Positions 4,913 to 38,044 of a stretch of 64,000 bases of DNA are shown here, in pieces (positions within the stretch are counted from its first letter, which is position 1; every line of letters starts with the position of its first letter). Both the position numbers and the translations under genes were made by a program. Under the pieces are notes generated by a model that saw only the letters and a program-made list of their open reading frames with translations, was not told the origin of the DNA and made no database searches. The DNA is from Gammaproteobacteria bacterium (GTDB taxonomy: Bacteria; Pseudomonadota; Gammaproteobacteria; Eutrophobiales; Eutrophobiaceae): positions 3,006,093-3,070,092 of the forward strand of contig OZ241347.1 of the NCBI GenBank assembly GCA_965200295.1, in the 5' to 3' direction.

Positions 4913-6643
4913 ATGAGCATAACAACCATCGGCGAGGCGCTGGTCAAGGCCGGCAAGTTACAACCCGAAGAGCTGCAACAGGCGCTGTCAGTCAACGACC
5001 AACAAGCTGACGGCATTGGCCCGCTGCTGGTGCGGCTTGGCCTGGTGTCGGAGGCTGATCTGGTGAACGCCTATGCCGAACATTACCACCTGGAACGTCT
5101 GGCAGACCATGAAATCCCCGTCGCGCCGCTCAACCCGGACCTGTTTGCCGGCGTTTTTCTGGAACAGGCGGGCGTGTTGCCGGTCAGTGAGGAACGCGAG
5201 CGCATCACTCTGGCCGTAACCGACCCGGACGATCATTTTACCGTGCGCGCAGTGGAACTCGCCTGTGGCAAGGCGGCGCTGCTCAAGCTGGCGAGCATCA
5301 GCCAGATGGACAATGCCCTGCGCCGCCTCTACGGCGACGACAAGTCCACCATGGAGGACATTGTCGAGGCGATACCCGCCGATGCAGTCGCGACCGGAGA
5401 GGATTCTGTGGCAGAACTACGCTCTCTCGCCGCCGAAGCGCCCATCATCCGGCTGGTTAACCTGATCATCAACCGCGCCGTGAGCCTGCGCGCCTCCGAC
5501 ATTCACATTGAACCGTTTGCCAGACGGATGAGTGTGCGCTATCGCATCGACGGACTGTTACAGGACGCCGAGGCGCCGCCAGCCCATTCCGGCGCGGCAA
5601 TTATCTCCCGCATCAAGATCATGGCCCGGCTGAACATCGCCGAGCGGCGTTTGCCGCAGGACGGACGCATACAGCTACGCGCCCAGGGTCGGCTGTTGGA
5701 CTTGCGGGTCTCGACGTTTCCCACCCTGTACGGGGAGAGCATGGTGTTGCGCATTCTGGACCAGGGCCAGGGGAACGCCACGCTGGAACAACTCGGTTTT
5801 AACCCGGCGGTGGCGCAAGGATTGCAGCAGTTGCTGACCCTGCCCCACGGCATCATCCTGGTCACCGGCCCCACCGGCAGCGGCAAGACCACCACCTTGT
5901 ATGCCGCCTTGCAGCGCCTGAACACGGCTGAGCGCAAAATCCTCACGGTAGAAGACCCGGTGGAATACCAGCTTGAGGGCATCAATCAGATGCAGGTGAA
6001 ACCACAAATCGGGCTGAATTTTGCCGCCGCGCTACGGGCGCTGGTGCGGCAGGACCCGGACGTGATCATGATCGGCGAGATGCGCGATGTGGAAACGGCC
6101 CGGATTGCGGTGCAGGCGGCGCTCACCGGCCATCTGGTATTCTCCACGCTACACACCAACGACGCCGGCAGTTCCATCACCCGCCTGTTGGACATGGGCA
6201 TTGAGGATTATCTGCTGACCTCTACCCTGAGCGGCATCCTGGCGCAACGCCTGGTGCGTACCTTGTGCCACGCCTGTCGGTCGGCTTACGCACCGGACCC
6301 GGCCTTGTACGCACAGTTACAGCAAGAGCTACCTGCAGGGGACGCTGATAACATCCCGCAGAACAACGAAGGCCACCCGGACGTACCGCACCTGTACCAG
6401 GCCAACGGCTGTGACGCTTGTGCCCACACCGGCTATCGCGGGCGCACTGTCATCGGTGAGTTATTGCTCCTGTCCGATACCTTGCGCAGCCTGGTACGCA
6501 AGGGCGCGGACGGCAAAGTCATCCAGCAGGCCGCCATACATGCCGGCATGGACAGCATGCGCACAGACGGGATCAAAAAAGCGCTGGCCGGCATGACCAC
6601 GGTTGAGGAGATCACACGGGTTACCCAATGCTCTCCTGGTTGA
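4913..6643 (+). CDS. gspE: T2SS ATPase GspE
   Basis: 576 aa with Walker A 'GPTGSGKTT' and a tetracysteine 'CHACRS...CDACAHTGYRGR' zinc motif. Typical GspE/PulE family features. Confidence 0.9.
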   Translation: MSITTIGEALVKAGKLQPEELQQALSVNDQQADGIGPLLVRLGLVSEADLVNAYAEHYHLERLADHEIPVAPLNPDLFAGVFLEQAGVLPVSEERERITLAVTDPDDHFTVRAVELACGKAALLKLASISQMDNALRRLYGDDKSTMEDIVEAIPADAVATGEDSVAELRSLAAEAPIIRLVNLIINRAVSLRASDIHIEPFARRMSVRYRIDGLLQDAEAPPAHSGAAIISRIKIMARLNIAERRLPQDGRIQLRAQGRLLDLRVSTFPTLYGESMVLRILDQGQGNATLEQLGFNPAVAQGLQQLLTLPHGIILVTGPTGSGKTTTLYAALQRLNTAERKILTVEDPVEYQLEGINQMQVKPQIGLNFAAALRALVRQDPDVIMIGEMRDVETARIAVQAALTGHLVFSTLHTNDAGSSITRLLDMGIEDYLLTSTLSGILAQRLVRTLCHACRSAYAPDPALYAQLQQELPAGDADNIPQNNEGHPDVPHLYQANGCDACAHTGYRGRTVIGELLLLSDTLRSLVRKGADGKVIQQAAIHAGMDSMRTDGIKKALAGMTTVEEITRVTQCSPG

Positions 6644-7679: not shown

Positions 7680-8576
7680 TCATACGGACAAAATACAGGG
7701 ACATAACCCTGTTGTCAAATGCGGGTCGATGCGCTGGCCCCAGACGTCATAGCGCAGGCGCTGTAAGATAACGCCGTCAGGGTCTACCACACCGACCACG
7801 CTGTCGAGGTGGTCTTTGAGATAATAGCGGGTGTCGTTAGCCGTGCGCGTCCCGGCCTTGTTGTGTTGCTGGGTGATGAGCACCGTGCCCCCGGCCAGCG
7901 TGCGCCGATAGGTGCTGGCGCCGTCGGCGGCGATGACATGCTCTACGGCGCCGAGATAGACCGTGGTCGTGGTACTCGTGCCCTGACCGGTGCGCACCGT
8001 GTCCGTGCGGGTGCTGCGGCTGCGGTCGGGGCCATAAACAAAGGTGGTGGCGTGTGTGCCCCGGGTGATGCCAGCCACCTTGTTAAAAGCCGTGTAGGTC
8101 AGCGTGCGCCCGGCGCCGCTGAGTTGGTTGCCGTTGGCATCGTAGGTGTAGGTGTCAGTACCGGCCTGCACCACAGCGTGCGGGCCGGGAGTGCTCTCAT
8201 CCGTGCTGCCGTAGGTGTACGCGCCCACCCCGCTCTTGCGGGTGATGTTGCCCTGAGCGTCGTAGTCCACAGTGCGGGTGACGCTGGTCCGGCCGCCAGC
8301 GGTCCAGGCCCGCACCAGACGGTTGTGGCGGTCGTAGCTGAGATACTCGCCGAACCGGATAGCGCCCGCCTGCCAGGCGCGCTGACTTAAGTTGCCGAGC
8401 ACATCCCAGCCGTAGCTGTCCTTCTGCAAGCGCACACGCAAGGCCGTGTGGGCATTAATCAGACCCACGCGCCCGGTGCTGTCCGAAATGCTGCGCACCG
8501 TACTGACCGCACCGCCGCCTAAGGTCTCCCGGGTAACCTGCCCGCGCGCGTTGCGATGGTTGATGGTGCGATACAC
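7680..8576 (-). pseudogene. Internal RHS fragment truncated at both ends
   Basis: Nucleotide and amino-acid identity to the RHS body from 'YRTINHRNARGQ...' to 'WGQRIDP'. It then diverges to 'HLTTGLCPCILSV*'. No N-terminal body and no toxin tip. Confidence 0.8.
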
Positions 8577-8718: not shown

Positions 8719-9081
8719 TCAATGCATTTCCACGGAAAATCTTTCAAATTTGATCCCCCCTTTCGTTATAGTAATCTTATCTGTGACGTCGAAGCCGTAC
8801 GAAACATAGCCTAATTTTTTTGTCACCTCTTTGCCCGATAAGAACTCAACGCCTAAATTGTATCCTGTGTCACGTTTTACGAAAAACTGCATTTCGACTT
8901 CCTCGTCTTGCTCTAACCCCTTAACGGTTTGGGTATTTTCGTTAACTGTAACTTGTATCAATGCAATGATTTCATTAGATTGATTTACGATAGTCAGGGT
9001 TGCTTTGCCATCTTTTGAACAATTAACTAATACGAGCATGGCTCCCACCAAGCAGAGAAATTTCAAGCAGCATGTTTTCAT
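8719..9081 (-). CDS. Putative lipoprotein immunity protein for the HNN-motif RHS tip (low GC)
   Basis: 120 aa with a lipoprotein-type signal 'LCLVGAMLVLVNCS'. Its ATG shares one base with the stop of the upstream RHS toxin gene. Paralogous to 12667..13041. Confidence 0.65.
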   Translation of the reverse strand: MKTCCLKFLCLVGAMLVLVNCSKDGKATLTIVNQSNEIIALIQVTVNENTQTVKGLEQDEEVEMQFFVKRDTGYNLGVEFLSGKEVTKKLGYVSYGFDVTDKITITKGGIKFERFSVEMH

Positions 9082-12000
9082 CAGTATTGCGTGACTACAT
9101 CTAACAACGGTTCTGATGGGTCTATCACTATTAGCTGAGAGTGATCGATCATTGTGCCACTTGCGGCGGCTGCCCGCCCAACCGAGTTATTGTGTAAATC
9201 CATTAGCATTTCTCTTATAGGCTGATCTTTTATAATTAGCCCTTCCAGTTCGTGCCCATATCCGACCATAATTGAGGTGATCGGATTAATTTCCTGATAC
9301 ATGCGCTGATTCCATACAGAATGTCTATATGCATCGCCTGTATTATTGTGGCCCGGTATGGCATTCAAAACTTCCTGGCCAATCTCTCTTGCTCGACCAA
9401 AATCAGGAACAAACTTATCTTTAATTGACTGCAACCCTCGTTTAATGCCATCAGACCAACTTTTTGCTGTCCGACGCGTCTCGTCTATAGAACCTTGCGC
9501 CCGTGCCGCCGACGCTTCCGCGTTAAACAACTGCGCCATCGCCGCAGTTAGCGCCCCATTAGCAAACTTGCCACCGGTGATACGGGAGATGGTGCCACCC
9601 GCCACGGCGGCTATCGTGGTGCGACCGATGACCGCCGAGGCGCTGAGGTCGCGGTAAGAGAATCGTCCCATCACCGCCTTGGACAAACCTGCCGCTAAGA
9701 ACCCGTTGCCGAACTGCCCACCCTGTAACTCGGCCAGAACACCCCCGGCTAAGCCGTGGGTCAAAACATGACCGGCGCCGCCCGCAGGTAACCCCGTGAG
9801 CGCCGTGAAATGCTCCCCTATCCCATAGAACGCCGCCGCACTGATACCCCCGAACAAAGCGCCCTTGACCGAGCCGGTGGCAATGCCGCCGGTGACAAAC
9901 CCGAACTGAAAGGCACTCAGCCAGGACTGGAAGACCCAAGCCTGTACGCCTGGTATCGCCAGCAAGGCAATGCTCATGAACGGCGCAACATCCCCGAACA
10001 CCTTGTTTAAGCCCTTAAACAGCTTCCCGATAAAATACCCACTGGGATCGGTGTAGGTCAAGGGGTTATTGAGCACATAGCTGTAGCGGTTCTGTCCCTG
10101 GGTATAGTGGGGAAACTGAATAATCGGGTCGGCCTGTAAGAACCGACCGAGCTTCGGGTCATAAATGCGCCCGTTCATGTGGATTAAGCCGTGAGCATCG
10201 AGCATCTCATGGCCGGTGTAGCCGCGGGGGGTGAAGCGGGTGTGCAGCGGACTGGTCAGGGTGAGCTGGGCCAGTATCTCACTGTTGTCCGGGTCGATGC
10301 GCTGGCCCCAGGCGTCATAGCGCAGGCGCTGTAAGACAACGCCATCGGAGTCCACCACACCGACCACGCTGTCGAGGTGGTCTTTGAGATAATAGCGGGT
10401 GTCATTGGTCGTGCGGGCGCCGCTCTTGTCGTGTTGCTGGGTGATGAGTACTGTCCCCCCGGCCAGCGTGCGCCGGTAGGCGCTGGCGCCGTCGGCGGCG
10501 ATGACATGCTCTACGGCGCCGAGATAGACCGTGGTCGTGGTACTCGTGCCCTGACCGGTGCGCACCGTGTCCGTGCGGGTGCTGCGGCTGCGGTCGGGGC
10601 CATAAACAAAGGTGGTGGCGTGTGTGCCCCGGGTGATGCCAGCCACCTTGTTAAAAGCCGTGTAGGTCAGCGTGCGCCCGGCGCCGGTGCGTTGGTTGCC
10701 GTTAGCATCGTAGGTGTAGGTATCCGTGCCGGCCTGCACCACAGCGTGCGGGCCGGGGGTGCTCGCGTCCGTGCTGCCGTAGGTGTACGCGCCCACCCCG
10801 CTCTTGCGGGTGATGTTGCCCTGAGCGTCGTAGTCCACAGTGCGGGTGACGCTGGTCCGGCCACCGGCAGTCCAGGCCCGCACCAGACGATTGTGGCGGT
10901 CGTAGCTGAGATACTCGCCGAACCGGATAGCGCCCGCCTGCCAGGCGCGCTGACTTAAGTTGCCGAGCACATCCCAGCCGTAGCTGTCCTTCTGCAAGCG
11001 CACACGCATGGCCGTGTGGGCAGTAATCAGACCCACGCGCCCGGTGCTGTCCGAAATGCTGCGCACCGTACTGACCGCACCGCCGCCTAAGGTCTCCCGG
11101 GTAACCTGCCCGCGCGCGTTGCGATGGTTGATGGTGCGATACACGGCGCGTGGGCGGTTGTGCTCCTGCACCCCGTCGGTCCAGCGATACGCATGGCCCC
11201 ACTGATTATACTGCACCGCCACCACGTTATCCGTCCAGTCGGCCCGCTGCCGGGCCGCATCGAAGGTCTGATACGGACGCCCGTATTCATCGAAGGTCTG
11301 GCGGCTGTGGTAGGTCTTCGCCGTAGCGCCGACGCGCACGGTGGTCTCGGTCATGGCAGGACGCCCCAGCCTGTCATAGCGGTGCGCGCGAACATAGCCG
11401 CTACGGGTGTCTGCGACCCGGCTGAGTTGCCCCAGACCATTAGCCGCCGTGTCATACGTCCAGGTCACCTCGGACTCAATATCCGGCTTGGTATCCGCAT
11501 CAGCGCCATCCGGCACTGTGTCCCGGCGCGTCAGCGGGCGACCCAGGGCATCATAAGTCAGCGCTTGGACATTGCCCACCGCATCGGTCTGTTTGACCAG
11601 TTCGTCAAAGCCGTTATACGTGTAGTGGGTTACCCCCCGGTTCGGGTCTGTTTCCTTGACGCGCCGCCCGCGCAGGTCGTAGGCCCAGGCCACGGTCACG
11701 GCAGCATCGCCCGTGCCGGTGGCAGTCGCCACCACCTGCCCCCAGGCGTCGTAACGGTGCGTGACCGGCGTGCCCGCCGCATCGGTAGTCTTAATCACCT
11801 CGCCTAAGGCATTGCGGGTCTCGACGCTGGCCTGATTCTTGCCGTTGACGGTCTTAGCGCTCATGCCCTGATAAGTCATTGTGAGCCGGCTGTTGTGTCC
11901 GGCGCTGTAGTCAGGCAGGGTGGTCTGTGTCACCCGACCCAGCAGGTCGTAGGTGTGGACCGTGCGATACACCGTACCCCCGACATAGTACGGCTCGCTC

Positions 12001-12317
12001 TGCCGGGCCACCCGGCCCAAGGCGTCATAGTCCGTGTCGGTATGTACCCACTGCCCGCCAAAGCCGCGCCGGGCCGTGCGCACTACCCGATCCAGCATGT
12101 CGCGGTAGTCCCGGCTGACCCCGCCGCCAGCTAGCCGGGTCTCGGTGTACCAGGCCGCCTGACCGGGACAGTGAGACACCCCGGCACAGGCCGCCCGCAG
12201 CGCGCCGGTGTGAGAACCGTCAGCGGTCTGCGTAAAATACAACCGTCCCCCGGCCGTGTAGTGGTAGGTGGTCTTGAGACTGGCTGTCACCGCATAACTG
12301 CCGTTAACATCCAACAC
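9081..12317 (-). CDS. N-truncated RHS repeat protein (orphan) with an HNN-motif C-terminal toxin domain
   Basis: 1078 aa, nearly identical to the main RHS body from 'VLDVNGSY...' through the 'MAQLFNAE' core end. It carries a unique approximately 140-aa tip, '...PGHNNTGDAYRHSVWNQRMYQEI...'. Homology with the main gene stops at about 12352. Confidence 0.8.
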   Translation of the reverse strand: MLDVNGSYAVTASLKTTYHYTAGGRLYFTQTADGSHTGALRAACAGVSHCPGQAAWYTETRLAGGGVSRDYRDMLDRVVRTARRGFGGQWVHTDTDYDALGRVARQSEPYYVGGTVYRTVHTYDLLGRVTQTTLPDYSAGHNSRLTMTYQGMSAKTVNGKNQASVETRNALGEVIKTTDAAGTPVTHRYDAWGQVVATATGTGDAAVTVAWAYDLRGRRVKETDPNRGVTHYTYNGFDELVKQTDAVGNVQALTYDALGRPLTRRDTVPDGADADTKPDIESEVTWTYDTAANGLGQLSRVADTRSGYVRAHRYDRLGRPAMTETTVRVGATAKTYHSRQTFDEYGRPYQTFDAARQRADWTDNVVAVQYNQWGHAYRWTDGVQEHNRPRAVYRTINHRNARGQVTRETLGGGAVSTVRSISDSTGRVGLITAHTAMRVRLQKDSYGWDVLGNLSQRAWQAGAIRFGEYLSYDRHNRLVRAWTAGGRTSVTRTVDYDAQGNITRKSGVGAYTYGSTDASTPGPHAVVQAGTDTYTYDANGNQRTGAGRTLTYTAFNKVAGITRGTHATTFVYGPDRSRSTRTDTVRTGQGTSTTTTVYLGAVEHVIAADGASAYRRTLAGGTVLITQQHDKSGARTTNDTRYYLKDHLDSVVGVVDSDGVVLQRLRYDAWGQRIDPDNSEILAQLTLTSPLHTRFTPRGYTGHEMLDAHGLIHMNGRIYDPKLGRFLQADPIIQFPHYTQGQNRYSYVLNNPLTYTDPSGYFIGKLFKGLNKVFGDVAPFMSIALLAIPGVQAWVFQSWLSAFQFGFVTGGIATGSVKGALFGGISAAAFYGIGEHFTALTGLPAGGAGHVLTHGLAGGVLAELQGGQFGNGFLAAGLSKAVMGRFSYRDLSASAVIGRTTIAAVAGGTISRITGGKFANGALTAAMAQLFNAEASAARAQGSIDETRRTAKSWSDGIKRGLQSIKDKFVPDFGRAREIGQEVLNAIPGHNNTGDAYRHSVWNQRMYQEINPITSIMVGYGHELEGLIIKDQPIREMLMDLHNNSVGRAAAASGTMIDHSQLIVIDPSEPLLDVVTQY

Positions 12318-12666: not shown

Positions 12667-13041
12667 TTAGATGTCCGGGTCGGACGTTTCAACTAACACG
12701 CTGTTAAATTCTATACCTGTCTCGTGGATGATAACTTTATCTAATATGCTTGTCTCTCTCACAAGATAACCAACATCTTTCCATATTGTTCTTCCTGAAC
12801 TAAATTCAACATCGATATGGTAATCCGAAGGGCGTTTTACCAGAAAACGCATTTTAGTTTGTTCGCCATGCTTCAGATCTCTAACCATTTGCATATTTTC
12901 ATCAACTGTGACACGAAGTACAACAACCGTCTCACTAGACTCATTCACTATAGTCAATTCTGCTGTCCCTTCTCTGAAACAACCTTCAAATGCGAGTAGA
13001 ACACCAACTAAACAGAGAAATTTCAACCAGTGCGTTTTCAT
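12667..13041 (-). CDS. Putative lipoprotein immunity protein, paralog of 8719..9081
   Basis: 124 aa beginning 'MKTHWLKFLCLVGVLLAFEGC...', similar to 'MKTCCLKFLCLVGAMLVLVNC...'. Start overlaps the stop of orphan cassette 13041..14345. Confidence 0.65.
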   Translation of the reverse strand: MKTHWLKFLCLVGVLLAFEGCFREGTAELTIVNESSETVVVLRVTVDENMQMVRDLKHGEQTKMRFLVKRPSDYHIDVEFSSGRTIWKDVGYLVRETSILDKVIIHETGIEFNSVLVETSDPDI

Positions 13042-14345
13042 CAGTATTGCGTGACGGCATCTATAAATGGTTCTGATGGATCTATTACTATCAGATGAGA
13101 GTGATCGATCATTGTGCCACTTGCGGCGGCTGCCCGCCCAACCGAGTTATTGTGTAAATCCATAAGCGTTTCATTTAGCGGTTGTCTAGTCAATAGATTT
13201 TTAAGTTCGTATAAGTACCCAGCAGTATATGAAGTAACAGGATTGATCTCTTGGTACATCCGTTGACTCCACACGGCGTGTCTTTTTGCATCACCCATGT
13301 TGTTGTGACCGGGCGATGTATCCAAGACTTCCTGGCCAATCTCCCCTGCTCGACCAAAATCAGGAACAAACTTATCTTTAATTGACTGCAACCCTCGTTT
13401 AATGCCATCAGACCAACTTTTTGCTGTCCGACGCGTCTCGTCTATAGAACCTTGCGCCCGTGCCGCCGACGCTTCCGCGTTAAACAACTGCGCCATCGCC
13501 GCCGTTAGCGCCCCGTTAGCAAACTTGCCGCCGGTGATACGGGAGACAGTGCCGCCCACCACGGCGGCTATCGTGGTGCGGCCAATAACCGCCGGGGCGC
13601 TGACGTCCCGATAGGAGAACCGACCTATCACGGACTTGGATAAGCCCGCCGCTAAGAACCCGTTACCGAACTGTCCACCCTGCAACTCAGCCAGCACCCC
13701 GCCGGTCAACGCATGCGCGCCAAGATGTGTGAACCCACCTGTGGCCTCTATAGCCTGAAAGTAGTGCCCCACGGCGCTAAACGCCTGCGCCGATACATAA
13801 GTAAAGAGGCCTGCCTTCAACACCCGTTGCAAGGACACCCCGCCAGCATAGGCGTTCCCAGCCGCCGCCGTGGCGCAGGTCAGAGCATTGCCACTGAGGC
13901 AGTGTGCCAGGGTAGAAAACTGACGCAGTACCGGGACCTTGCTGAACAAGACCTCCCCAAAAATGCCGTTGATGATGCCGCCCACTACCTTACGTAACAG
14001 CTTCCCGATAAAATACCCACTGGGATCGGTATAGGTCAAGGGGTTGTTCAGCACATAGCTGTAGCGGTTCTGACCCTGGGTAGAGTGGGGGAACTGAATA
14101 ATCGGGTCGGCCTGTAAAAACCGGCCGAGCTTCGGATCATAGATGCGCCCGTTCATGTGGATTAAGCCGTGAGCATCGAGCATCTCATGGCCGGTGTAGC
14201 CACGGGGGGTGAAGCGGGTGTGCAGCGGACTGGTCAGGGTGAGCTGCGCCAGTATCTCACTGTTGTCCGGGTCGATGCGCTGGCCCCAGACGTCATAGCG
14301 CAGGCGCTGTAAGACAACGCCGTCGGAGTCCACCACACCGACCAC
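13041..14345 (-). CDS. Orphan RHS C-terminal cassette (core end plus an HNN-motif tip paralog). GTG start, possibly silent
   Basis: 434 aa starting inside the RHS body ('VGVVDSDGVVLQRLRYD...'). The tip contains '...PGHNNMGDAKRHAVWSQRMYQEI...', a paralog of the 9081 tip. A conserved junction lies upstream (14346-14483). Confidence 0.75.
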   Translation of the reverse strand: MVGVVDSDGVVLQRLRYDVWGQRIDPDNSEILAQLTLTSPLHTRFTPRGYTGHEMLDAHGLIHMNGRIYDPKLGRFLQADPIIQFPHSTQGQNRYSYVLNNPLTYTDPSGYFIGKLLRKVVGGIINGIFGEVLFSKVPVLRQFSTLAHCLSGNALTCATAAAGNAYAGGVSLQRVLKAGLFTYVSAQAFSAVGHYFQAIEATGGFTHLGAHALTGGVLAELQGGQFGNGFLAAGLSKSVIGRFSYRDVSAPAVIGRTTIAAVVGGTVSRITGGKFANGALTAAMAQLFNAEASAARAQGSIDETRRTAKSWSDGIKRGLQSIKDKFVPDFGRAGEIGQEVLDTSPGHNNMGDAKRHAVWSQRMYQEINPVTSYTAGYLYELKNLLTRQPLNETLMDLHNNSVGRAAAASGTMIDHSHLIVIDPSEPFIDAVTQY

Positions 14346-14483
14346 GCTGTCGAGGTGGTCTTTGAGATAATAGCGGGTGTCGTTAGTCGTGCGCGTCCCG
14401 GCCTTGTTGTGCTGCTGCGCCGTGCCCAGTGAGAAGGCATGATCAAGGGGTTAGAAATGAGCATCAGGTTTTTCAGGGATGAC

Positions 14484-14948
14484 TTACCCTGATGGGTGAC
14501 ATTCAGTTACATGGGGGGCATTAGTGTTAATTTTTCTAATCCGATTCTTTGTAATATTTTCCTCTAAAACGCCTTCTCTAATCCACACATGACCATTCCC
14601 AACCATCAAACCCCGCCAAGTAAAAAACAGATCTTCAATTTCTTGTTTCAAAATAGCTTCTTTAACGTTCGAATTGAAAATGACTTCGTAGCTTTTAATA
14701 AAATCAGCTTTAGTCTCGAGCCACAACACCTCTCGGTTTCCCAATGAAATCGGTAATGGATATGCGATAAGCTCAGAAATTCGTTTTTTATCATCTGCCT
14801 TCGTAGCAGCTTTAAGGACATTTACAAACGCTATCTGTTCCGACGTAACTTCGTCTGCGGATATAGACTCACAAGCATTAGAATTAATAGCGCTAATAAC
14901 CAATATTACTAATAATATTTTCACTAACAGCCCCCTTGAAACATGCAT
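14484..14948 (-). CDS. Orphan immunity protein, paralog of the lysozyme-tip immunity at 26542..27006. Signal peptide present
   Basis: 154 aa beginning 'MHVSRGLLVKILLVILVISAINSNACE...', about 80% identical to 26542..27006. Confidence 0.7.
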   Translation of the reverse strand: MHVSRGLLVKILLVILVISAINSNACESISADEVTSEQIAFVNVLKAATKADDKKRISELIAYPLPISLGNREVLWLETKADFIKSYEVIFNSNVKEAILKQEIEDLFFTWRGLMVGNGHVWIREGVLEENITKNRIRKINTNAPHVTECHPSG

Positions 14949-15023
14949 ATCTCTTCATAGCGTCGACTGGTCAAGCCTTTTGATGTAGTCTTTGTTGGAG
15001 AATTTCTTACTGAATTCTCAGCA

Positions 15024-15293
15024 TTAAACAACTGCGCCATCGCTGAGGTCCTGGTAAGAGAACCGTCCCATCACCGCCTTGGATAAGCCTGCGGCCAAAA
15101 ACCCGTTACCGAACTGTCCGCCCTGCAACTCAGCAAGGACACCCCCGGCCAGACCATGGGTCAGGACATGACCGGCGCCGCCCGCAGGTAACCCCGTGAG
15201 CGCTGTGAAATGCTCCCCTATCCCATAGAACGCCGCCGCACTGATACCCCCGAACAAAGCGCCCTTGACCGAGCCGGTGGCAAACCCGAGCAA
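15024..15293 (-). pseudogene. Displaced and decayed relic: RHS core end fused by deletions to a collapsed GH24 lysozyme tip, frameshifted
   Basis: Reads 'ATGSVKGALFGG...GRFSYQDLS' and then is out of frame. Continuing in the -1 frame gives 'AMAQLFNAENSVRNSPTK|TTSKGLTSRRYEEICM', which matches both ends of the lysozyme tip of 26982..37826 with the middle missing. Confidence 0.7.
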
Positions 15294-15297
15294 GAGT

Positions 15298-15903
15298 TCA
15301 TATTTCTACCTCAACATGCCGAATCCACTTACCATCGTAATAAAACAATATCACGGTAGATGACGGCGATGAGATCAAAATTGGAATGCTAAGTTTTCGT
15401 TTATCAATATCGGAAACATTAATTTTCGAACCATCTTTCATGTAACTGAACTGTATTGTTTCCAGATTTATACCGGTATAACCATAATAAAGATACATCC
15501 CTTTTAGTCCAATACCATCATCCAAGACATCCTTAACTACAAACGATTTTGCATGACTCCCTTTAACTGCAAATACCAAAAAATAGTCAAATCCATGCAC
15601 TAAATTTGAAACATGTTCAATATTGCTGTCTTTGTCGTAGAATTCATTTCTTTTTCTGGCTAGAAATAGAATGCTACTTTTGATATCACCGTAATCGACA
15701 AAGTCTAATACATATGGTGAGCCATCACTTCCATACGGATTAATATCTGGAAATCGGTCGCCGTGTACTGCTTCCAGTCCTTTAGTCGCTGCTAACTTGT
15801 CCATAAGTTGGAATACACTCTCCTTACTCTCAGATGAAGCCCAAGACAGCAGGGCCATTGAAAAACCAATAAGCAGAAGTAAACGAGAGACAATTCTGGC
15901 CAT
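15298..15903 (-). CDS. Putative periplasmic immunity protein for the M15-like peptidase tip (signal peptide, low GC)
   Basis: 201 aa beginning 'MARIVSRLLLLIGFSMALLSWASSE'. Lies immediately downstream of RHS 15906..18554. Confidence 0.6.
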   Translation of the reverse strand: MARIVSRLLLLIGFSMALLSWASSESKESVFQLMDKLAATKGLEAVHGDRFPDINPYGSDGSPYVLDFVDYGDIKSSILFLARKRNEFYDKDSNIEHVSNLVHGFDYFLVFAVKGSHAKSFVVKDVLDDGIGLKGMYLYYGYTGINLETIQFSYMKDGSKINVSDIDKRKLSIPILISSPSSTVILFYYDGKWIRHVEVEI

Positions 15904-15905
15904 TG

Positions 15906-18554
15906 TTAATTCTGTTTGCGAAGTTGAAAATGATAATGTCTATCATTGTAGTGATATGGCATCGCATTGGGATCAAAAATTAAATCTGTTTTACTAACAG
16001 AAGGCCGGACTATATCTACAGGCACAATCTCGCCGTCGTAGTATTTTATTCTCAAATCTACGGCATCACCTCTGATGTGAGCTGCTCCAGATTTACCTAT
16101 CAAAGAGCCATCTGTGCTTGAGTAGACTCTCCCGTCGGTCCCCTTATATCGGTCTCCACCTGTAACCCTGAATTGAAATTGGTCTGTTTCAATTTTCTTG
16201 ACTAGATTACTGTACAGATCTGCTACGTTTTCTCGAAGGGAATCATTTTCTAACACATAACCATCAGGATTTAATTCTCTGCCATCGACCATAATAGGGT
16301 ATCTATTCACTCGCGCCCGTGCCGCCGACGTTTCCGCATTAAACAACTGCGCCATCGCCGCGGTCAACGCCCCGTTAGCAAACTTGCCGCCGGTGATACG
16401 GGAGATGGTGCCACCCACCACAGCCGCTATGGTGGTACGACCAATAACCGCCGGGGCGCTGACGTCTCGATAGGCGAACCGCCCCATCACCGCCTTGGAC
16501 AAACCCGCCGCTAAGAACCCGTTGCCGAACTGCCCGCCCTGCAACTCGGCCAGAACACCCCCGGCTAAGCCATGGGTCAACACATGACCGGCGCCGCCCG
16601 CAGGTAACCCCGTGAGCGCCGTGAAATGCTCCCCTATCCCATAGAACGCCGCCGCACTGATACCCCCGAACAAAGCGCCCTTGACCGAGCCGGTGGCAAT
16701 GCCACCGGTGACAAACCCGAACTGAAAGGCACTCAGCCAGGACTGGAAGACCCAAGCCTGTACGCCTGGTATCGCCAGCAAGGCAATGCTTAAAAACGGC
16801 GCAAAGTCCCCGAACACCTTGTTCAAGCCCTTAAACAGCTTCCCGATAAAATACCCACTCGGGTCGGCATAGGTCAAGGGATTGTTCAGCACATAGCTGT
16901 AGCGGTTCTGACCCTGGGTATAGTGGGGGAACTGAATAACCGAGTCGGCCTGTAAGAACCGGCCGAGCTTCGGATCATAGATGCGCCCGTTCATGTGGAT
17001 TAAACCGTGAGCATCGAGCATCTCATGGCCGGTGTAGCCGCGTGCGGTGAAGCGGGTGTGCAGCGGACTGGTCAGGGTGAGCTGGGCCAGTATCTCACTG
17101 TTGTCCGGGTCGATGCGCTGGCCCCAGACGTCATAGCGCAGGCGCTGTAAGACAACGCCATCGGAGTCCACCACACCGACCACGCTGTCGAGGTGGTCTT
17201 TGAGATAATAGCGGGTGTCATTGGTCGTGCGGGCGCCGCTCTTGTCGTGTTGCTGGGTGATGAGTACTGTCCCCCCGGCCAGCGTGCGCCGGTAGGCGCT
17301 GGCGCCGTCGGCGGCGATGACATGCTCTACGGCGCCGAGATAGACCGTGGTCGTGGTACTCGTGCCCTGACCGGTGCGCACCGTGTCCGTGCGGGTGCTG
17401 CGGCTGCGGTCGGGGCCGTAAACAAAGGTGGTGGCGTGTGTGCCCCGGGTGATGCCAGCCACCTTGTTAAAAGCCGTGTAGGTCAGCGTGCGCCTGGCGC
17501 CGCTGAGTTGGTTGCCGTTGGCATCGTAGGTGTAGGTATCCGTGCCGGCCTGTACTACGGCATGTGGGCCGGGGGTGCTCGCGTCCGTGCTGCCGTAGGT
17601 GTACACGCCCACCCCGCTCTTGCGGGTGATGTTGCCCTGAGCGTCGTAGTCCACAGTGCGGGTGATGCTGGTCCGGCCACCGGCAGTCCAGGCCCGCACC
17701 AGACGATTGTGGCGGTCGTAGCTGAGATACTCGCCGAACCGGATAGCGCCCGCCTGCCAGGCGCGCTGACTTAAGTTGCCGAGCACATCCCAGCCGTAGC
17801 TGTCCTTCTGCAAGCGCACACGCATGGCCGTGTGGGCAGTAATCAGACCCACGCGCCCGGTGCTGTCCGAAATGCTGCGCACCGTACTGACCGCACCGCC
17901 GCCTAAGGTCTCCCGGGTAACCTGCCCGCGCGCGTTGCGATGGTTGATGGTGCGATACACGGCGCGTGGGCGGTTGTGCTCCTGCACCCCGTCGGTCCAG
18001 CGATACGCATGGCCCCACTGATTATACTGCACCGCCACCACGTTATCCGTCCAGTCGGCCCGCTGCCGGGCCGCATCGAAGGTCTGATACGGACGCCCGT
18101 ATTCATCGAAGGTCTGGCGGCTGTGGTAGGTCTTCGCCGTAGCGCCGACGCGCACGGTGGTCTCGGTCATGGCAGGACGCCCCAGCCTGTCATAGCGGTG
18201 CGCGCGAACATAGCCGCTACGGGTGTCTGCGACCCGGCTGAGTTGCCCCAGACCATTAGCCGCCGTGTCATACGTCCAGGTCACCTCGGACTCAATATCC
18301 GGCTTGGTATCCGCATCAGCGCCATCCGGCACTGTGTCCCGGCGCGTCAGCGGGCGACCCAGGGCATCATAAGTCAGCGCTTGGACATTGCCCACCGCAT
18401 CGGTCTGTTTGACCAGTTCGTCAAAGCCGTTATACGTGTAGTGGGTTACGCCCCGGTTCGGAAAATGGGCTATTTGATAAAGATTGTCTCTAATGAAATG
18501 TACGATAATACCAACGCCCCTCAAAGCATAAAAAATAAATCCAGCCTCCGCCAC
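15906..18554 (-). CDS. N-truncated RHS repeat protein (orphan) with a zinc D-Ala-D-Ala-type peptidase (M15-like) C-terminal toxin domain
   Basis: 882 aa. Identity with the main RHS begins at 'PNRGVTHYTYNGFD'. The tip after 'AQLFNAE' contains 'KSGAAHIRGDAVDL' (S-x-H-x-x-G-x-A-x-D) and 'DRHYHFQL', the metal ligands typical of peptidase M15 (VanY/VanX family). Confidence 0.7.
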   Translation of the reverse strand: MAEAGFIFYALRGVGIIVHFIRDNLYQIAHFPNRGVTHYTYNGFDELVKQTDAVGNVQALTYDALGRPLTRRDTVPDGADADTKPDIESEVTWTYDTAANGLGQLSRVADTRSGYVRAHRYDRLGRPAMTETTVRVGATAKTYHSRQTFDEYGRPYQTFDAARQRADWTDNVVAVQYNQWGHAYRWTDGVQEHNRPRAVYRTINHRNARGQVTRETLGGGAVSTVRSISDSTGRVGLITAHTAMRVRLQKDSYGWDVLGNLSQRAWQAGAIRFGEYLSYDRHNRLVRAWTAGGRTSITRTVDYDAQGNITRKSGVGVYTYGSTDASTPGPHAVVQAGTDTYTYDANGNQLSGARRTLTYTAFNKVAGITRGTHATTFVYGPDRSRSTRTDTVRTGQGTSTTTTVYLGAVEHVIAADGASAYRRTLAGGTVLITQQHDKSGARTTNDTRYYLKDHLDSVVGVVDSDGVVLQRLRYDVWGQRIDPDNSEILAQLTLTSPLHTRFTARGYTGHEMLDAHGLIHMNGRIYDPKLGRFLQADSVIQFPHYTQGQNRYSYVLNNPLTYADPSGYFIGKLFKGLNKVFGDFAPFLSIALLAIPGVQAWVFQSWLSAFQFGFVTGGIATGSVKGALFGGISAAAFYGIGEHFTALTGLPAGGAGHVLTHGLAGGVLAELQGGQFGNGFLAAGLSKAVMGRFAYRDVSAPAVIGRTTIAAVVGGTISRITGGKFANGALTAAMAQLFNAETSAARARVNRYPIMVDGRELNPDGYVLENDSLRENVADLYSNLVKKIETDQFQFRVTGGDRYKGTDGRVYSSTDGSLIGKSGAAHIRGDAVDLRIKYYDGEIVPVDIVRPSVSKTDLIFDPNAMPYHYNDRHYHFQLRKQN

Positions 18555-19323: not shown

Positions 19324-19584
19324 TTATTTGACAATCGTCAATTGCCATTCATCATCCTTATTTTTCTGATACAGCCAGACTTCACTTTTTTCTAATCCCC
19401 TCTCTTTATAATCCACTTGAAAGTAAACATTATCAGAATCGCCTTCTAGAATGCCGATTGATACCAATGTTGCCCATGGATGGTCTTGCCTGAATTTGTC
19501 TTCAACTTCTCCAACGGTTACTATGTCACAGGCTGCTAGTATTAGAACCAAAAGTGAGAAACCAAAAATCCGTCTGGCAATCAT
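19324..19584 (-). CDS. Small lipoprotein, putative immunity for the tip of RHS 19581..23234
   Basis: 86 aa with 'FGFSLLVLILAACD' (lipobox LAAC). Start overlaps the RHS stop. Confidence 0.6.
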   Translation of the reverse strand: MIARRIFGFSLLVLILAACDIVTVGEVEDKFRQDHPWATLVSIGILEGDSDNVYFQVDYKERGLEKSEVWLYQKNKDDEWQLTIVK

Positions 19585-22500
19585 GGGCCATGTCCCTCTG
19601 TGTTAGCAGCTTTAATACCCTTCTCGTTCGCTATTAGATCATCTATAGAAAACGCCCAAGGGCGGCTCCCATCCAACCTAGAAGGCAAATCTCGGACATC
19701 ATACAAGATTAGTCCCTGCAACTCATTGACGATACCAGCGGTTCTTACCAACCCTCCTCCATATTTAAGTGTCAATTCATAGCTTACTGCCTTGTGCCTA
19801 ATTTCGGAATTATCATGCCCTGGAAAATTTTTGTGCCCCCTTGAACGCGTCTCATTAAAATCATCATATACATTTGTGTATTTATCATATTCATCTCCAA
19901 CCCAGATCCTTGCCCTTTTAATCCAGTTTTCTACTTTTTCAAAAATACTTCTATGATCTATCAGCTGTGAACCTTGCGCCCGTGCCGCCGACGTTTCCGC
20001 ATTAAACAACTGCGCCATCGCCGCGGTCAACGCCCCGTTAGCAAACTTGCCGCCGGTGATACGGGAGATGGTGCCACCCACCACAGCCGCTATGGTGGTA
20101 CGACCAATAACCGCCGGGGCGCTGACGTCTCGATAGGCGAACCGCCCCATCACCGCCTTGGACAAACCCGCCGCTAAGAACCCGTTGCCGAACTGCCCGC
20201 CCTGCAACTCGGCCAGAACACCCCCGGCCAAACCATGGGTCAGGACATGACCGGCGCCGCCCGCAGGCAGCCCCGTGAGCGCCGTGAAATGCTCCCCTAT
20301 CCCATAGAACGCCGCCGCACTGATACCCCCGAACAAAGCGCCCTTGACCGAGCCGGTGGCAATGCCACCGGTGACAAACCCGAACTGAAAAGCGCTCAGC
20401 CAGGACTGGAAGACCCAAGCCTGTACGCCTGGTATCGCCAGCAAGGCAATGCTTAAAAACGGCGCAAAGTCCCCGAACACCTTGTTCAAGCCCTTAAACA
20501 GCTTCCCGATAAAATACCCACTGGGATCGGTGTAGGTCAAGGGGTTGTTCAGCACATAGCTGTAGCGGTTCTGACCCTGGGTATAGTGGGGAAACTGGAT
20601 AATGGGATCTGCTTGTAAGAACCGACCGAGCTTCGGGTCATAAATGCGCCCGTTCATGTGGATTAAACCGTGAGCATCGAGCATCTCATGGCCGGTGTAG
20701 CCGCGTGCGGTGAAGCGGGTGTGCAACGGACTGGTCAGGGTGAGCTGGGCCAGTATCTCACTGTTGTCCGGGTCGATGCGCTGGCCCCAGGCGTCATAGC
20801 GCAGGCGCTGTAAGATAACGCCGTCGGAGTCCACCACACCGACCACGCTGTCGAGGTGGTCTTTGAGATAATAGCGGGTGTCGTTAGCCGTGCGCGTCCC
20901 GGCCTTGTTGTGTTGCTGGGTGATGAGTACTGTCCCCCCGGCCAGCGTGCGCCGGTAGGTGCTGGCGCCGTCGGCGGCGATGACATGCTCCACGGCGCCG
21001 AGATAGACCGTGGTCGTGGTACTCGTGCCCTGACCGGTGCGTACCGTGTCCGTGCGGGTGCTGCGGCTGCGGTCGGGGCCGTAAACAAAGGTGGTGGCGT
21101 GTGTGCCCCGGGTGATGCCAGCCACCTTGTTAAAAGCCGTGTAGGTCAGCGTGCGCCTGGCGCCGCTGAGTTGGTTGCCGTTAGCATCGTAGGTGTAGGT
21201 ATCCGTGCCGGCCTGTACTACGGCATGTGGGCCGGGGGTGCTCGCGTCCGTGCTGCCGTAGGTGTACACGCCCACCCCGCTCTTGCGGGTGATGTTGCCC
21301 TGAGCGTCGTAGTCCACAGTGCGGGTGATGCTGGTCCGGCCACCGGCAGTCCAGGCCCGCACCAGACGATTGTGGCGGTCGTAGCTGAGATACTCGCCGA
21401 ACCGGATAGCGCCCGCCTGCCAGGCGCGCTGACTTAAGTTGCCGAGCACATCCCAGCCGTAGCTGTCCTTCTGCAAGCGCACACGCATGGCCGTGTGGGC
21501 AGTAATCAGACCCACGCGCCCGGTGCTGTCCGAAATGCTGCGCACCGTACTGACCGCACCGCCGCCTAAGGTCTCCCGGGTAACCTGCCCGCGCGCGTTG
21601 CGATGGTTGATGGTGCGATACACGGCGCGTGGGCGGTTGTGCTCCTGCACCCCGTCGGTCCAGCGATACGCATGGCCCCACTGATTATACTGCACCGCCA
21701 CCACGTTATCCGTCCAGTCGGCCCGCTGCCGGGCCGCATCGAAGGTCTGATACGGACGCCCGTATTCATCGAAGGTCTGGCGGCTGTGGTAGGTCTTCGC
21801 CGTAGCGCCGACGCGCACGGTGGTCTCGGTCATGGCAGGACGCCCCAGCCTGTCATAGCGGTGCGCGCGAACATAGCCGCTACGGGTGTCTGCGACCCGG
21901 CTGAGTTGCCCCAGACCATTAGCCGCCGTGTCATACGTCCAGGTCACCTCGGACTCAATATCCGGCTTGGTATCCGCATCAGCGCCATCCGGCACTGTGT
22001 CCCGGCGCGTCAGCGGGCGACCCAGGGCATCATAAGTCAGCGCTTGGACATTGCCCACCGCATCGGTCTGTTTGACCAGTTCGTCAAAGCCGTTATACGT
22101 GTAGTGGGTCACACCCCGGTTTGGATCTGTTTCCTTGACACGTCGCCCGCGCAGGTCGTAGGCCCAGGCCACGGTCATGGCAGTATCGCCCGTGCCGGTG
22201 GCAGTCGCCACCACCTGCCCCCAGGCGTCGTAACGGTGCGTGACCGGCGTGCCCGCCGCATCGGTAGTCTTAATCACCTCGCCTAAGGCATTGCGGGTCT
22301 CGACGCTGGCCTGATTCTTGCCGTTGACGGTCTTAGCGCTCATGCCCTGATAAGTCATTGTGAGCCGGCTGTTGTGTCCGGCGCTGTAGTCAGGCAGGGT
22401 GGTCTGTGTCACCCGACCCAGCAGGTCGTAGGTGTGGACCGTGCGATACACCGTACCCCCGACATAGTACGGCTCGCTCTGCCGGGCCACCCGGCCCAAG

Positions 22501-23234
22501 GCATCATAGTCCGTGTCGGTATGTACCCACTGCCCGCCAAAGCCGCGCCGGGCCGTGCGCACTACCCGATCCAGCATGTCCCGATAGTCCCGGCTGCCCC
22601 CGCCGCCGGACAGCCGGGTCTCGGTGTACCAGGCCGCCTGACCGGGACAGTGAGACACCCCGGCACAGGCCGCCCGCAGCGCGCCGGTGTGAGAACCGTC
22701 AGCGGTGTGCGTAAAATACAACCGTCCCCCGGCCGTGTAGTGGTAGGTGGTCTTGAGACTGGCTGTCACCGCATAGCTGCCGTTAACATCCAACACCTGC
22801 TCGGATTGGGTCGGCAGTCCGTGGGCGTTATAGGCGCGGGTCCGGCGCAACGGGCGACCCAGGCAGTCTTTTTCCAGTGTCACAAACCGCCCAGCGCTGT
22901 CGTACTCTGTTGTGTCGATGTTGCAACGGGTGACGCCGGCGGCGGTGACCGCAGCCCGGATGCGGTGGCCGAACTTGTCATAGTCATAGGTGGCGGTGTG
23001 TTTGAGGTCGGTCTTATCCGGCTCCCGTACCTCAGTCTTGAGCAAGCCTTTGCGGTGACCGCTGGTGTAGTAGCTGAACTCGGCGGTGCGGCTTGCCGTG
23101 AACTCGGTGCCGACCATGGTGTTCCTGACGCCGCTCTCGATGCCGGCAACGGGTAGATCATTAGTTGGGCAGTTCAATCCTTGTCGGGTGGATATTAGCT
23201 TGAGTTGGCTCAATCCCTTACATGCCCCAAGCAT
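19581..23234 (-). CDS. N-truncated RHS repeat protein (orphan) with an uncharacterized C-terminal toxin domain
   Basis: 1217 aa. Identity with the main RHS begins at 'TASRTAEFSYYTSGHRKG'. It has a unique 45-aa N-terminus and a unique tip '...SRGHKNFPGHDNSEIRHKAVSYELTLKYGGG...'. Confidence 0.8.
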   Translation of the reverse strand: MLGACKGLSQLKLISTRQGLNCPTNDLPVAGIESGVRNTMVGTEFTASRTAEFSYYTSGHRKGLLKTEVREPDKTDLKHTATYDYDKFGHRIRAAVTAAGVTRCNIDTTEYDSAGRFVTLEKDCLGRPLRRTRAYNAHGLPTQSEQVLDVNGSYAVTASLKTTYHYTAGGRLYFTHTADGSHTGALRAACAGVSHCPGQAAWYTETRLSGGGGSRDYRDMLDRVVRTARRGFGGQWVHTDTDYDALGRVARQSEPYYVGGTVYRTVHTYDLLGRVTQTTLPDYSAGHNSRLTMTYQGMSAKTVNGKNQASVETRNALGEVIKTTDAAGTPVTHRYDAWGQVVATATGTGDTAMTVAWAYDLRGRRVKETDPNRGVTHYTYNGFDELVKQTDAVGNVQALTYDALGRPLTRRDTVPDGADADTKPDIESEVTWTYDTAANGLGQLSRVADTRSGYVRAHRYDRLGRPAMTETTVRVGATAKTYHSRQTFDEYGRPYQTFDAARQRADWTDNVVAVQYNQWGHAYRWTDGVQEHNRPRAVYRTINHRNARGQVTRETLGGGAVSTVRSISDSTGRVGLITAHTAMRVRLQKDSYGWDVLGNLSQRAWQAGAIRFGEYLSYDRHNRLVRAWTAGGRTSITRTVDYDAQGNITRKSGVGVYTYGSTDASTPGPHAVVQAGTDTYTYDANGNQLSGARRTLTYTAFNKVAGITRGTHATTFVYGPDRSRSTRTDTVRTGQGTSTTTTVYLGAVEHVIAADGASTYRRTLAGGTVLITQQHNKAGTRTANDTRYYLKDHLDSVVGVVDSDGVILQRLRYDAWGQRIDPDNSEILAQLTLTSPLHTRFTARGYTGHEMLDAHGLIHMNGRIYDPKLGRFLQADPIIQFPHYTQGQNRYSYVLNNPLTYTDPSGYFIGKLFKGLNKVFGDFAPFLSIALLAIPGVQAWVFQSWLSAFQFGFVTGGIATGSVKGALFGGISAAAFYGIGEHFTALTGLPAGGAGHVLTHGLAGGVLAELQGGQFGNGFLAAGLSKAVMGRFAYRDVSAPAVIGRTTIAAVVGGTISRITGGKFANGALTAAMAQLFNAETSAARAQGSQLIDHRSIFEKVENWIKRARIWVGDEYDKYTNVYDDFNETRSRGHKNFPGHDNSEIRHKAVSYELTLKYGGGLVRTAGIVNELQGLILYDVRDLPSRLDGSRPWAFSIDDLIANEKGIKAANTEGHGP

Positions 23235-26403: not shown

Positions 26404-26541
26404 GCTGTCGAGGTGGTCTTTGAGATAATAGCGGGTGTCGTTGGCCGTGCGCGTCCCGGCCTTGTTGTGCTGCTGCGCCGTGCCCAGTGAGAAGGCGTGA
26501 TCAAGGGGTTAGAAATGATCATCAGGCTTTTCAGGGATGAC

Positions 26542-37826: not shown

Positions 37827-38044
37827 GAGGAAAGCCTCTGGTGTTGTTGGTTGTTCGTTTCTGCCCTGTTAAGCTGCAGGGCATGTGATTCGCGGCTCAC
37901 TCTATGAGACCGTCGCGGGACTGTCAAGCGTTTTTTGAGTTTTGTTTTTGAGTTTTATTCAGTTTAAGGCAGACTATGCACTGCTGTAACCGTGTAAAAA
38001 ATGAACGCAGAACCTCCGTTACGACCCTGGCAAACAACCTATTC

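Follow-up and report, generated by a model that had tools for sequence, protein, structure and literature searches.

Two orphan Rhs/YD-repeat open reading frames (ORFs) lie on the minus strand of a 64,000-nucleotide stretch of contig OZ241347.1 (assembly GCA_965200295.1, positions 3,006,093 to 3,070,092; hereafter, the window) from an uncultured gammaproteobacterium of the Eutrophobiaceae. These ORFs, cassette A (9081..12317, 1078 amino acids, aa) and cassette B (13041..14345, 434 aa), end in toxin tips whose membership in the Pfam family DUF6973 (PF22322), corresponding to the Min-Wnt family of the Lipocone superfamily, is near certain from sequence comparison. We lean toward the view that the tips hydrolyze the phosphate linkage of undecaprenyl-linked cell wall precursors in the periplasm of target cells and are blocked by cognate lipoproteins with a predicted beta-sandwich fold. 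Both the family and its occurrence as Rhs tips have already been described, and the locus adds no new kind of toxin.

Two Rhs tips belong to DUF6973 and the Min-Wnt family

The C-terminal motif, which reads PGHNNTGDAYRHSVWNQRMYQEI in cassette A and PGHNNMGDAKRHAVWSQRMYQEI in cassette B, is the one that a preliminary description of the region, made from the DNA alone, had assigned to an uncharacterized toxin family. However, both tips match DUF6973 above its gathering threshold of 27 bits (tip A, 41.2 bits, 1.5e-10; tip B, 39.3 bits, 5.9e-10; isolated domain, 46.9 bits) and belong to a published family. A clear match to a known family, which the preliminary description itself had named as grounds for abandoning its label, was thus found. 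A profile search yielded 139 relatives, nearly all of them short C-terminal pieces of Rhs proteins annotated as PF22322, and 824 cluster representatives matched at E<=1e-3 in an exhaustive search. In a scan of a genome collection, from which the species of the window was not recovered (best match 56% identical), the family was found in Gammaproteobacteria, Nitrospirae, Verrucomicrobia, Bdellovibrionales, Bacteroidota, Actinobacteria, Firmicutes, and one archaeal metagenome-assembled genome.

The link to Min-Wnt was made through one of these relatives (P0081), which is OEU66809.1, an entry in the file Min-Wnt.tsv of Burroughs et al. 2025 (PMC12419801), with which tip A shares 44% identity (BLASTP, E 1e-24). 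Min-Wnt proteins are prokaryotic five-helix Wnt cores placed in the SAA-Wnt clade of the Lipocone superfamily (Burroughs, Nicastro, Aravind, eLife 2025, PMC12419801). Their ancestral active site comprises a His in helix 2 (H2), a Glu in H3, and an Asp in H4, the last helix also carrying an 'sNxxGR' motif, and RHS is their most common N-terminal partner (341 of 1394 contexts), next to SpvB and beta-propeller partners (PMC12419801). They are predicted to act in the periplasm on lipid-linked precursors, and their immunity proteins are lipoproteins or membrane-anchored, with a BamE-like type being dominant (PMC12419801). The tips share with the family the helical core, the H/E/D site, the NNxxGR motif, and the Rhs partner; the locus departs from it in a fifth helix that is short in the model and in an immunity protein predicted to be an all-beta sandwich rather than BamE-like, and otherwise in nothing fundamental. 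The sister family prok-SAA was considered and rejected, since its listed members carry a cysteine-rich helix-2 motif of the DKYFHCKANCEA type, whereas DAxRHxxW is found in the tips, which lack cysteines. DUF6973 is not named in the Lipocone paper (PMC12419801); neither DUF6973 nor PF22322 occurs in its supplements, and a full-text literature search found no paper naming either term.

Searches of PDB sequences with a single tip returned nothing meaningful and those with a 5-sequence profile returned nothing; only deeper profiles reached known structures. With the 42-sequence family profile, 9uu0_A was matched at E 1.1e-7, followed by Wnt-5a (E 0.012), Wnt-7a, and Wnt-8, and the alignment to Wnt runs through the RHxxW and LMxLHNNxxGR motifs. 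Furthermore, 4 of the 42 members match Pfam wnt (PF00110), with a best E-value of 2.6e-4. Homology to metazoan Wnt is detectable at the sequence level, through a signal that is weak but specific. Metazoan Wnt ligands have these two motifs and the helical core in common with the tips; unlike the tips, they have lost the catalytic residues, contain hairpin inserts rich in Cys as well as a lipidated Ser, and serve as signaling ligands. TelC, another Lipocone toxin, had no detectable match in the PDB profile searches with the tip family.

Conserved residues and predicted fold

Across an alignment of 101 sequences, the invariant or near-invariant positions (numbering of tip A) are H48, N49, D53, A54, R56, H57, W60, G77, E81, E94, M97, D98, N101, N102, G105, and R106, which fall into the patterns D-A-x-R-H, G-x-x-x-E, and E-x-x-M-D-L-x-N-N-x-x-G-R. 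H57, E81, and D98 are invariant in both this and the 42-sequence alignment. Both tips contain NNSVGR, in which N102 and G105 never vary and R106 hardly does.

An AlphaFold2 (AF2) model of the tip, a check that the preliminary description had proposed, was built on the 101-sequence alignment and gave the expected helical core. The model is all-helical (predicted local distance difference test score, pLDDT, 89.8), with a linker helix (residues 2-27), four helices at 31-44, 51-68, 70-87, and 92-111, and a short one at 129-135. H57, E81, and D98 are located on the predicted helices 51-68, 70-87, and 92-111, respectively, so that in the model the helix placement matches the H2/H3/H4 site and the 'sNxxGR' motif of the SAA-Wnt clade.

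Characterized relatives of the tips

The structure matched by the family profile, PDB 9UU0, is BteO, an effector of the GA3 type VI secretion system (T6SS) of Bacteroides fragilis that is present in this entry as a fusion with maltose-binding protein (He et al., PNAS 2025, PMC12541434). The aligned BteO segment itself matches DUF6973 with 49 bits (E 5.1e-13). Toxicity of BteO was seen only when it was targeted to the periplasm, and intoxicated cells showed elongation, blebbing, lysis, and an altered muropeptide composition; the protein had no peptidoglycan hydrolase or amidase activity and bound the C-terminal domains of OmpA proteins (PMC12541434). Mutation of the conserved motif residues, which the preliminary description had suggested, has in effect already been carried out there, as R143A, H144A, H167A, E168A, D187A, and D191A each abolished toxicity (PMC12541434). 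In our profile alignment, these six residues occupy the RH, HE, E/D(-4), and D positions and align to R56, H57, H80, E81, E94, and D98 of tip A. The BteO paper mentions neither Wnt nor lipid II nor undecaprenyl (PMC12541434).

BteO and its immunity protein BtiO resemble the pairs described here in the DUF6973 domain, the RH, HE, (D/E)xxxD, and NNxxGR residues, periplasmic toxicity (for BteO), and a secreted immunity protein, the likeness of BteO to the tips existing at the profile level only. Unlike the tips, BteO travels on its own as a T6SS cargo and has an N-terminal transmembrane helix, and BtiO has an OmpA-C-like alpha/beta fold in contrast to the predicted beta-sandwich here. A BteO-type T6SS effector was rejected as a class for the tips, given that the scanned ORFs of the window yielded no T6SS genes, that the flanks resemble a type II secretion system (T2SS), and that the model of the immunity protein is all-strand beyond its leader.

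Two further comparisons concern the chemistry. TelC cleaves lipid II (PMC12419801), and the TelC-TipC pair of Streptococcus intermedius, a lipid II phosphatase of the type VII secretion system (T7SS) and its immunity protein, offers a mechanistic template, with a Lipocone toxin that acts on lipid II only outside the cytoplasm and is opposed by a membrane-anchored extracytoplasmic immunity protein. However, TelC belongs to the ClaspCone-CapCone-TelC clade, has cap inserts, and is delivered by the T7SS through an LXG domain. The pyrophosphatases YfiM, VanZ, and Llp1 act on lipid-linked oligosaccharides in a Ca2+-dependent manner, share the Lipocone fold with the tips, and need a helix-2 His, a helix-3 Glu, and a helix-4 Asp for their activity, YfiM being inactivated by K28A, H31A, E72A, or D91A; unlike the tips, they are integral-membrane housekeeping or resistance enzymes from distant clades and not secreted toxins.

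Architecture of the two cassettes

A self-comparison of the region (blastn) showed that the similarity of cassette A to the main Rhs gene of the array breaks off at 9510, and the variable tip A was therefore delimited to 9084..9509 (142 aa), close to the interval of 9081-9520 given in the preliminary description. It consists of a 36-aa linker helix, near-identical in A and B, and a 106-aa toxin domain. The two tips had been described as diverged paralogs of about 70% identity, which is a fair estimate, as identity depends on the span compared: 75% over the 106-aa toxin domain, 81% over 136 aa, and 68% over 339 aa. A family hidden Markov model (HMM) searched against the window found exactly these two tips (E 1e-36 and 3e-37), so the resemblance is not due to chance.

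Upstream of tip and linker, the Rhs core of cassette A ends in PLTYTDPSGY, directly followed by the pre-toxin region. Such a segment of roughly 175-210 aa, Gly/Ala-rich and hydrophobic, separates the tip from the Rhs cleavage motif in all cassettes. In cassette B (13467..14080, minus strand), its N-terminal half is unlike that of cassette A and is the part that passes the DUF637 threshold. For the FHA-2/pre-toxin region of CdiA, a role in membrane translocation has been proposed, and by analogy the pre-toxin segment may serve the same role here. With RHS repeats, a core ending in PxxxxDPxG[LY], a C-terminal tip that varies, and an adjoining immunity gene, the cassettes have the defining features of Rhs polymorphic toxins; both are 5'-truncated, however, and as they lack an N-terminal secretion/delivery module, they do not qualify as full-length members. 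The coordinates of all features are compiled in Table 1.

Table 1. Features of cassettes A and B and of the surrounding Rhs array (window coordinates).
Feature	Position	Strand	Evidence or remark
Toxin domain A, Min-Wnt/DUF6973 Lipocone, 106 aa	9084..9401	-	Pfam, BLASTP, AF2, codons checked
Toxin domain A, predicted active-site codons	R56-H57 9321..9326; E81 9249..9251; E94 9210..9212; D98 9198..9200	-	
Toxin domain A, NNSVGR motif	ends at 9174	-	
Linker of tip A, 36 aa (AARAQGSIDETRR...KFVPD)	9402..9509	-	modeled mostly as a single long helix
Pre-toxin region A, ~175 aa, Gly/Ala-rich, hydrophobic, DUF637-like	9510..10034	-	common to main gene and other orphans
5'-truncated Rhs/YD-repeat core, cassette A	10035..12317	-	RHS_repeat 5.2e-20; DNA 96.8% identical to main gene 27459..30319 (blastn)
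Immunity A, 120 aa, signal/lipoprotein leader (Cys21), predicted 8-stranded beta-sandwich	8719..9081	-	
Toxin domain B, Min-Wnt/DUF6973, 105 aa	13044..13358	-	Pfam DUF6973 5.9e-10
Toxin domain B, motifs	RH 13278..13283; YE 13206..13211; MDL 13155..13163	-	
Linker of tip B	13359..13466	-	
Short orphan Rhs core end and pre-toxin region, cassette B	13467..14345	-	DUF637 1.8e-6, above threshold
Immunity B, 124 aa	12667..13041	-	paralog of immunity A
Main Rhs gene, 3614 aa	26982..37826	-	only full-length Rhs gene of the array
Gene after lysozyme tip, 154 aa, signal peptide	26542..27006	-	presumed lysozyme immunity
Second copy of the 154-aa gene, upstream of cassette B	14484..14948	-	
1-kb repeat containing the 154-aa gene copies	13996..14994 and 26054..27052		92% DNA identity
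First orphan	25075..26403	-	tip with WRNNNPGN motif appears cut off
Mutator-family transposase gene	23960..25213	+	overlaps 3' end of first orphan
Orphan with divergent Lipocone candidate tip	19581..23234	-	
Tip of this orphan (GHDNSEIRHKAV...VNELQG...SIDDLIANEKGI)	19584..19970	-	SAA-Wnt-like candidate
Lipoprotein after this tip, 86 aa	19324..19584	-	LAAC lipobox
Orphan with peptidase-like motif tip	15906..18554	-	
Tip of this orphan (SGAAHIRGDAVDL ... HYH)	15906..16310	-	motif seen by eye, unconfirmed
ORF downstream of this tip, 201 aa, signal peptide	15298..15903	-	
Rhs debris, 89-aa pre-toxin fragment	15024..15293	-	
Rhs debris, 298-aa core fragment, distal array end	7680..8576	-	97% identical to 10569..11158
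T2SS/MSHA-pilus-like genes bracketing the array	4913..6643; 37976..39271; 39441..41738; 41965..43257	+; +; +; -	
Insertion sequence (IS), DDE_Tnp_1	43696..44805	+	

Immunity proteins

In both pairs, the ATG of the immunity gene lies inside the stop codon of the toxin with a one-base overlap (TGATG). The immunity proteins had been described as paralogous lipoproteins, and they are indeed paralogs with a secretion or lipoprotein leader: A and B are 45% identical (E 4e-37), and both start with a signal-type hydrophobic N-terminus (MKTCCLKFLCLVG in A, MKTHWLKFLCLVG in B) followed by a Cys, their own lipoboxes (LVNC and FEGC) being noncanonical, whereas canonical lipoboxes are present in many homologs from other genomes. 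A word-indexed search gave only 11 close homologs. In approximately 19 of the most closely related loci, which derive from multiple phyla, the ORF right after the tip encodes an immunity homolog of 114-132 aa with a lipobox or an N-terminal membrane anchor and conserved hxNxS, SG, and GY(V/L)T motifs, and the tips upstream of these homologs are located on Rhs or Rhs-fragment ORFs.

The AF2 model of the immunity protein, built from 12 sequences, consists of the leader helix and eight strands without any other helices (pLDDT >93 for the mature portion), and the folds that it matches are generic beta-sandwiches (best 2mca, E 2e-5). A BamE-like immunity protein was therefore rejected, since that type has a two-helix hairpin and three strands, as was an OmpA-C mimic like BtiO. 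The family may correspond to the 'Imm-Jellyroll' of Burroughs et al.

Two of the related loci extend this picture. In one (L002), the Min-Wnt domain is complete, and it lies together with an immunity gene of 74% identity beside a GspE/MshEN gene, as in the window. In the other (L001, 7843..8384), which belongs to a 3.8-Mb genome, all that precedes the immunity homolog P0252 is a 24-residue remnant of a Min-Wnt C-terminus; P0252 is an orphan immunity gene retained after loss of its toxin. P0252 is surrounded by small ORFs and toxin-antitoxin genes.

Divergence of the two toxin-immunity pairs

The preliminary description had regarded the co-diversification of the two pairs as a hallmark of an arms race. 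Nei-Gojobori counts lend little weight to this suggestion. While the linker DNA of A and B is approximately 100% identical and the last 34 codons have a proportion of synonymous differences (pS) of only 0.19, codons 11-72 of the toxin domain show a saturated pS of 0.79 with a proportion of nonsynonymous differences (pN) of 0.21, and the immunity genes a pS of 0.70 with a pN of 0.34; the flanks of this divergent toxin core/immunity segment are 97-100% identical. The saturated pS, the much lower pN, and the near-identical flanks therefore point to anciently diverged modules, mainly under purifying selection, whose flanks were homogenized by recombination, so that a recent arms race or positive selection at the locus is not supported, although individual sites may be under selection. 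Approximately 26 substitutions distinguish the A and B tips, 0 of them at invariant residues. The differing residues, at the end of helix 1, the start of helix 2, in helix 3, and in the loop between helices 3 and 4, probably set immunity specificity.

The Rhs array and its genomic setting

The product of the only full-length Rhs gene of the array combines a signal-like N-terminus with three fn3 domains, SpvB and TcdB_toxin_midN domains, FG-GAP propeller repeats, and Rhs repeats, and its C-terminal tip matches Phage_lysozyme (2e-35). Its layout is reminiscent of a Tc-toxin BC fusion deployed as an antibacterial weapon, without a T6SS marker. Downstream of it, toward lower coordinates, follow five 5'-truncated orphan cassettes with core DNA 93-99% identical to the main gene, and in all cassettes of the array PxxxxDPSGY marks the core end ahead of the pre-toxin segment. 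The 154-aa gene after the lysozyme tip is presumed to encode the lysozyme immunity protein, and a second copy of it lies upstream of cassette B, both copies being contained in a 1-kb repeat.

The other orphan tips and their immunity proteins had no match in Pfam scans, and the ORFs downstream of these tips likewise start with signal or lipoprotein leaders. One of the tips is a candidate for a third, very divergent Lipocone of SAA-Wnt-like type (family profile, hhalign probability 49%, E 1.7e-4; window HMM, E 0.028), and the lipoprotein encoded after it is unrelated to immunity A/B. Another tip contains what by eye looks like the motif of a LAS-type (VanY/peptidase M15-like) zinc peptidase. Taken together, the array appears to be devoted to toxins that act on the envelope, in agreement with delivery to the periplasm.

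The array is bracketed by T2SS/MSHA-pilus-like genes, including GspE with an MshEN domain, GspF, a secretin, and an ExeA-like AAA ATPase, and the same type of neighbors is found at locus L002 (2781..4502). Possibly, the giant Rhs protein has a T2SS-like export route of its own. The Mutator-family transposase gene overlapping the first orphan appears to have cut off its tip; a second IS lies beyond the full-length gene, and two pieces of Rhs debris are found within and at the distal end of the array.

Proposed mechanism and alternatives

In the mechanism that we propose, the tips would be exchangeable C-terminal toxins of the Rhs system, with homologous recombination moving an orphan cassette onto the full-length Rhs gene. 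The tip would then be freed by Rhs autoproteolysis at PxxxxDPSGY and enter the periplasm of the target cell along with the pre-toxin segment, which is Gly-rich and DUF637-like. At this site, the H/E/D residues of the tip, probably with Ca2+, would hydrolyze the bond, phosphate or pyrophosphate, that joins undecaprenol to the glycan head group of lipid II or of a similar carrier-linked precursor, wall synthesis would stop, and lysis would follow. The cognate beta-sandwich lipoprotein on the periplasmic face of a membrane would plug the pocket of the toxin. Periplasmic action is assumed because of the periplasm-only toxicity of BteO, the leaders of the immunity proteins, and the lysozyme tip of the main gene; the periplasmic or membrane site of action put forward in the preliminary description thus fits the immunity leaders, the homolog BteO (PMC12541434), and the Lipocone predictions (PMC12419801).

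Several points weigh against precursor hydrolysis. BteO, the sole studied member, was called non-enzymatic, and its essential residues were read as a groove that binds OmpA and BtiO (PMC12541434). Enzyme activity has been demonstrated for no Min-Wnt protein, and a substrate cannot be assigned from sequence. Furthermore, the predicted fifth helix is short (residues 129-135), tip B has a Tyr in place of the His of the GHE motif, at the position aligning with the essential His167 of BteO, and both cassettes are orphans that currently have no delivery domain attached.

The reading of BteO leads to an alternative in which the tips are non-enzymatic binders of the peptidoglycan-binding domains of OmpA-family (or Pal/MotB-like) proteins that uncouple the outer membrane from the wall, with the immunity protein competing for the groove. 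BteO is itself a DUF6973 member. OmpA proteins were recovered with it in pull-downs, its toxicity was suppressed when OmpA was overexpressed, and its non-toxic mutants bound OmpA9 poorly, but BteO remained toxic after deletion of its top interactor ompA9 (BF9343_3708), a triple ompA mutant was viable, and the activity assays covered peptidoglycan hydrolase and amidase alone, with no mention of lipid II or undecaprenyl substrates (PMC12541434). The animal relative serum amyloid A has also been reported to bind OmpA. However, the H/E/D residues are invariant across phyla that include Actinobacteria and Firmicutes and across toxins with unrelated immunity folds, a pattern that is characteristic of catalytic sites and uncommon in surfaces that bind proteins. 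In addition, the equivalent residues are catalytic in YfiM, and the immunity protein here is predicted to be a beta-sandwich instead of an OmpA-C mimic like BtiO. We therefore consider pure OmpA binding unlikely for these tips.

A Lipocone enzyme could also act on another lipid head group, such as phospholipids, lipopolysaccharide/lipid A phosphates, or lipoprotein anchors, and cause membrane damage instead of wall arrest. The superfamily does include phosphatidylserine synthases, and its authors allow that toxin versions may target other lipids (PMC12419801), but the elongation, blebbing, and altered muropeptides caused by BteO point to the cell wall (PMC12541434). TelC (the soluble/toxin Lipocone with a known substrate), VanZ, and YfiM, moreover, all act on polyprenyl-linked glycans, and the lysozyme tip of the array, together with the unconfirmed metallopeptidase-like motif in another tip, suggests wall targets, making a different lipid substrate an explanation to which we give rather little credence. 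Finally, the cassettes could be decaying relics whose displaced tips are neither expressed nor open to reactivation, as might be suspected from the two 5'-truncated Rhs ORFs without a secretion or delivery domain, the IS elements and fragments in the array, and the immunity gene kept beside a 24-aa toxin remnant in L001. Decay appears distinctly improbable, as the ORFs are intact through tip and immunity gene, all family-invariant residues are retained, pN is well below pS, and the TGATG coupling is kept in both copies; moreover, 2.9 kb of core DNA with ~97% identity between the orphans A/B and the main gene permits recombination onto the full-length gene, and immunity genes are useful on their own against the toxins of neighbors.

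Implications for the Min-Wnt family

DUF6973, Min-Wnt, and the BteO family are one and the same, a connection made in neither the Lipocone nor the BteO paper (PMC12419801, PMC12541434). As the essential residues of BteO coincide with the predicted catalytic residues, the choice between an enzyme and an OmpA binder is now open to direct experiment. That Min-Wnt toxins, BteO and both tips among them, depend on Ca2+ to hydrolyze wall precursors linked to undecaprenyl-(pyro)phosphate, with the six residues of BteO forming the catalytic pocket, seems to us plausible, if slightly short of probable. If so, the non-enzymatic model of BteO would be incomplete, and binding of OmpA-C or of an immunity protein would simply plug the catalytic pocket. 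The A/B pair would then represent a natural specificity swap, in which the catalytic residues are identical and the substitutions are concentrated in helix 3 and the adjoining loop, paired with two immunity proteins of 45% identity, and Wnt would have as its immediate ancestor in bacteria a toxin that cleaves lipid carriers.

The locus illustrates clearly how, in nature, bacterial Wnt-like toxins serve as interchangeable Rhs warheads. Moreover, a family of beta-sandwich lipoprotein immunity proteins is conserved beside Rhs-linked Min-Wnt tips across phyla, and the A/B pair is well suited for mapping the specificity between toxin and immunity protein.

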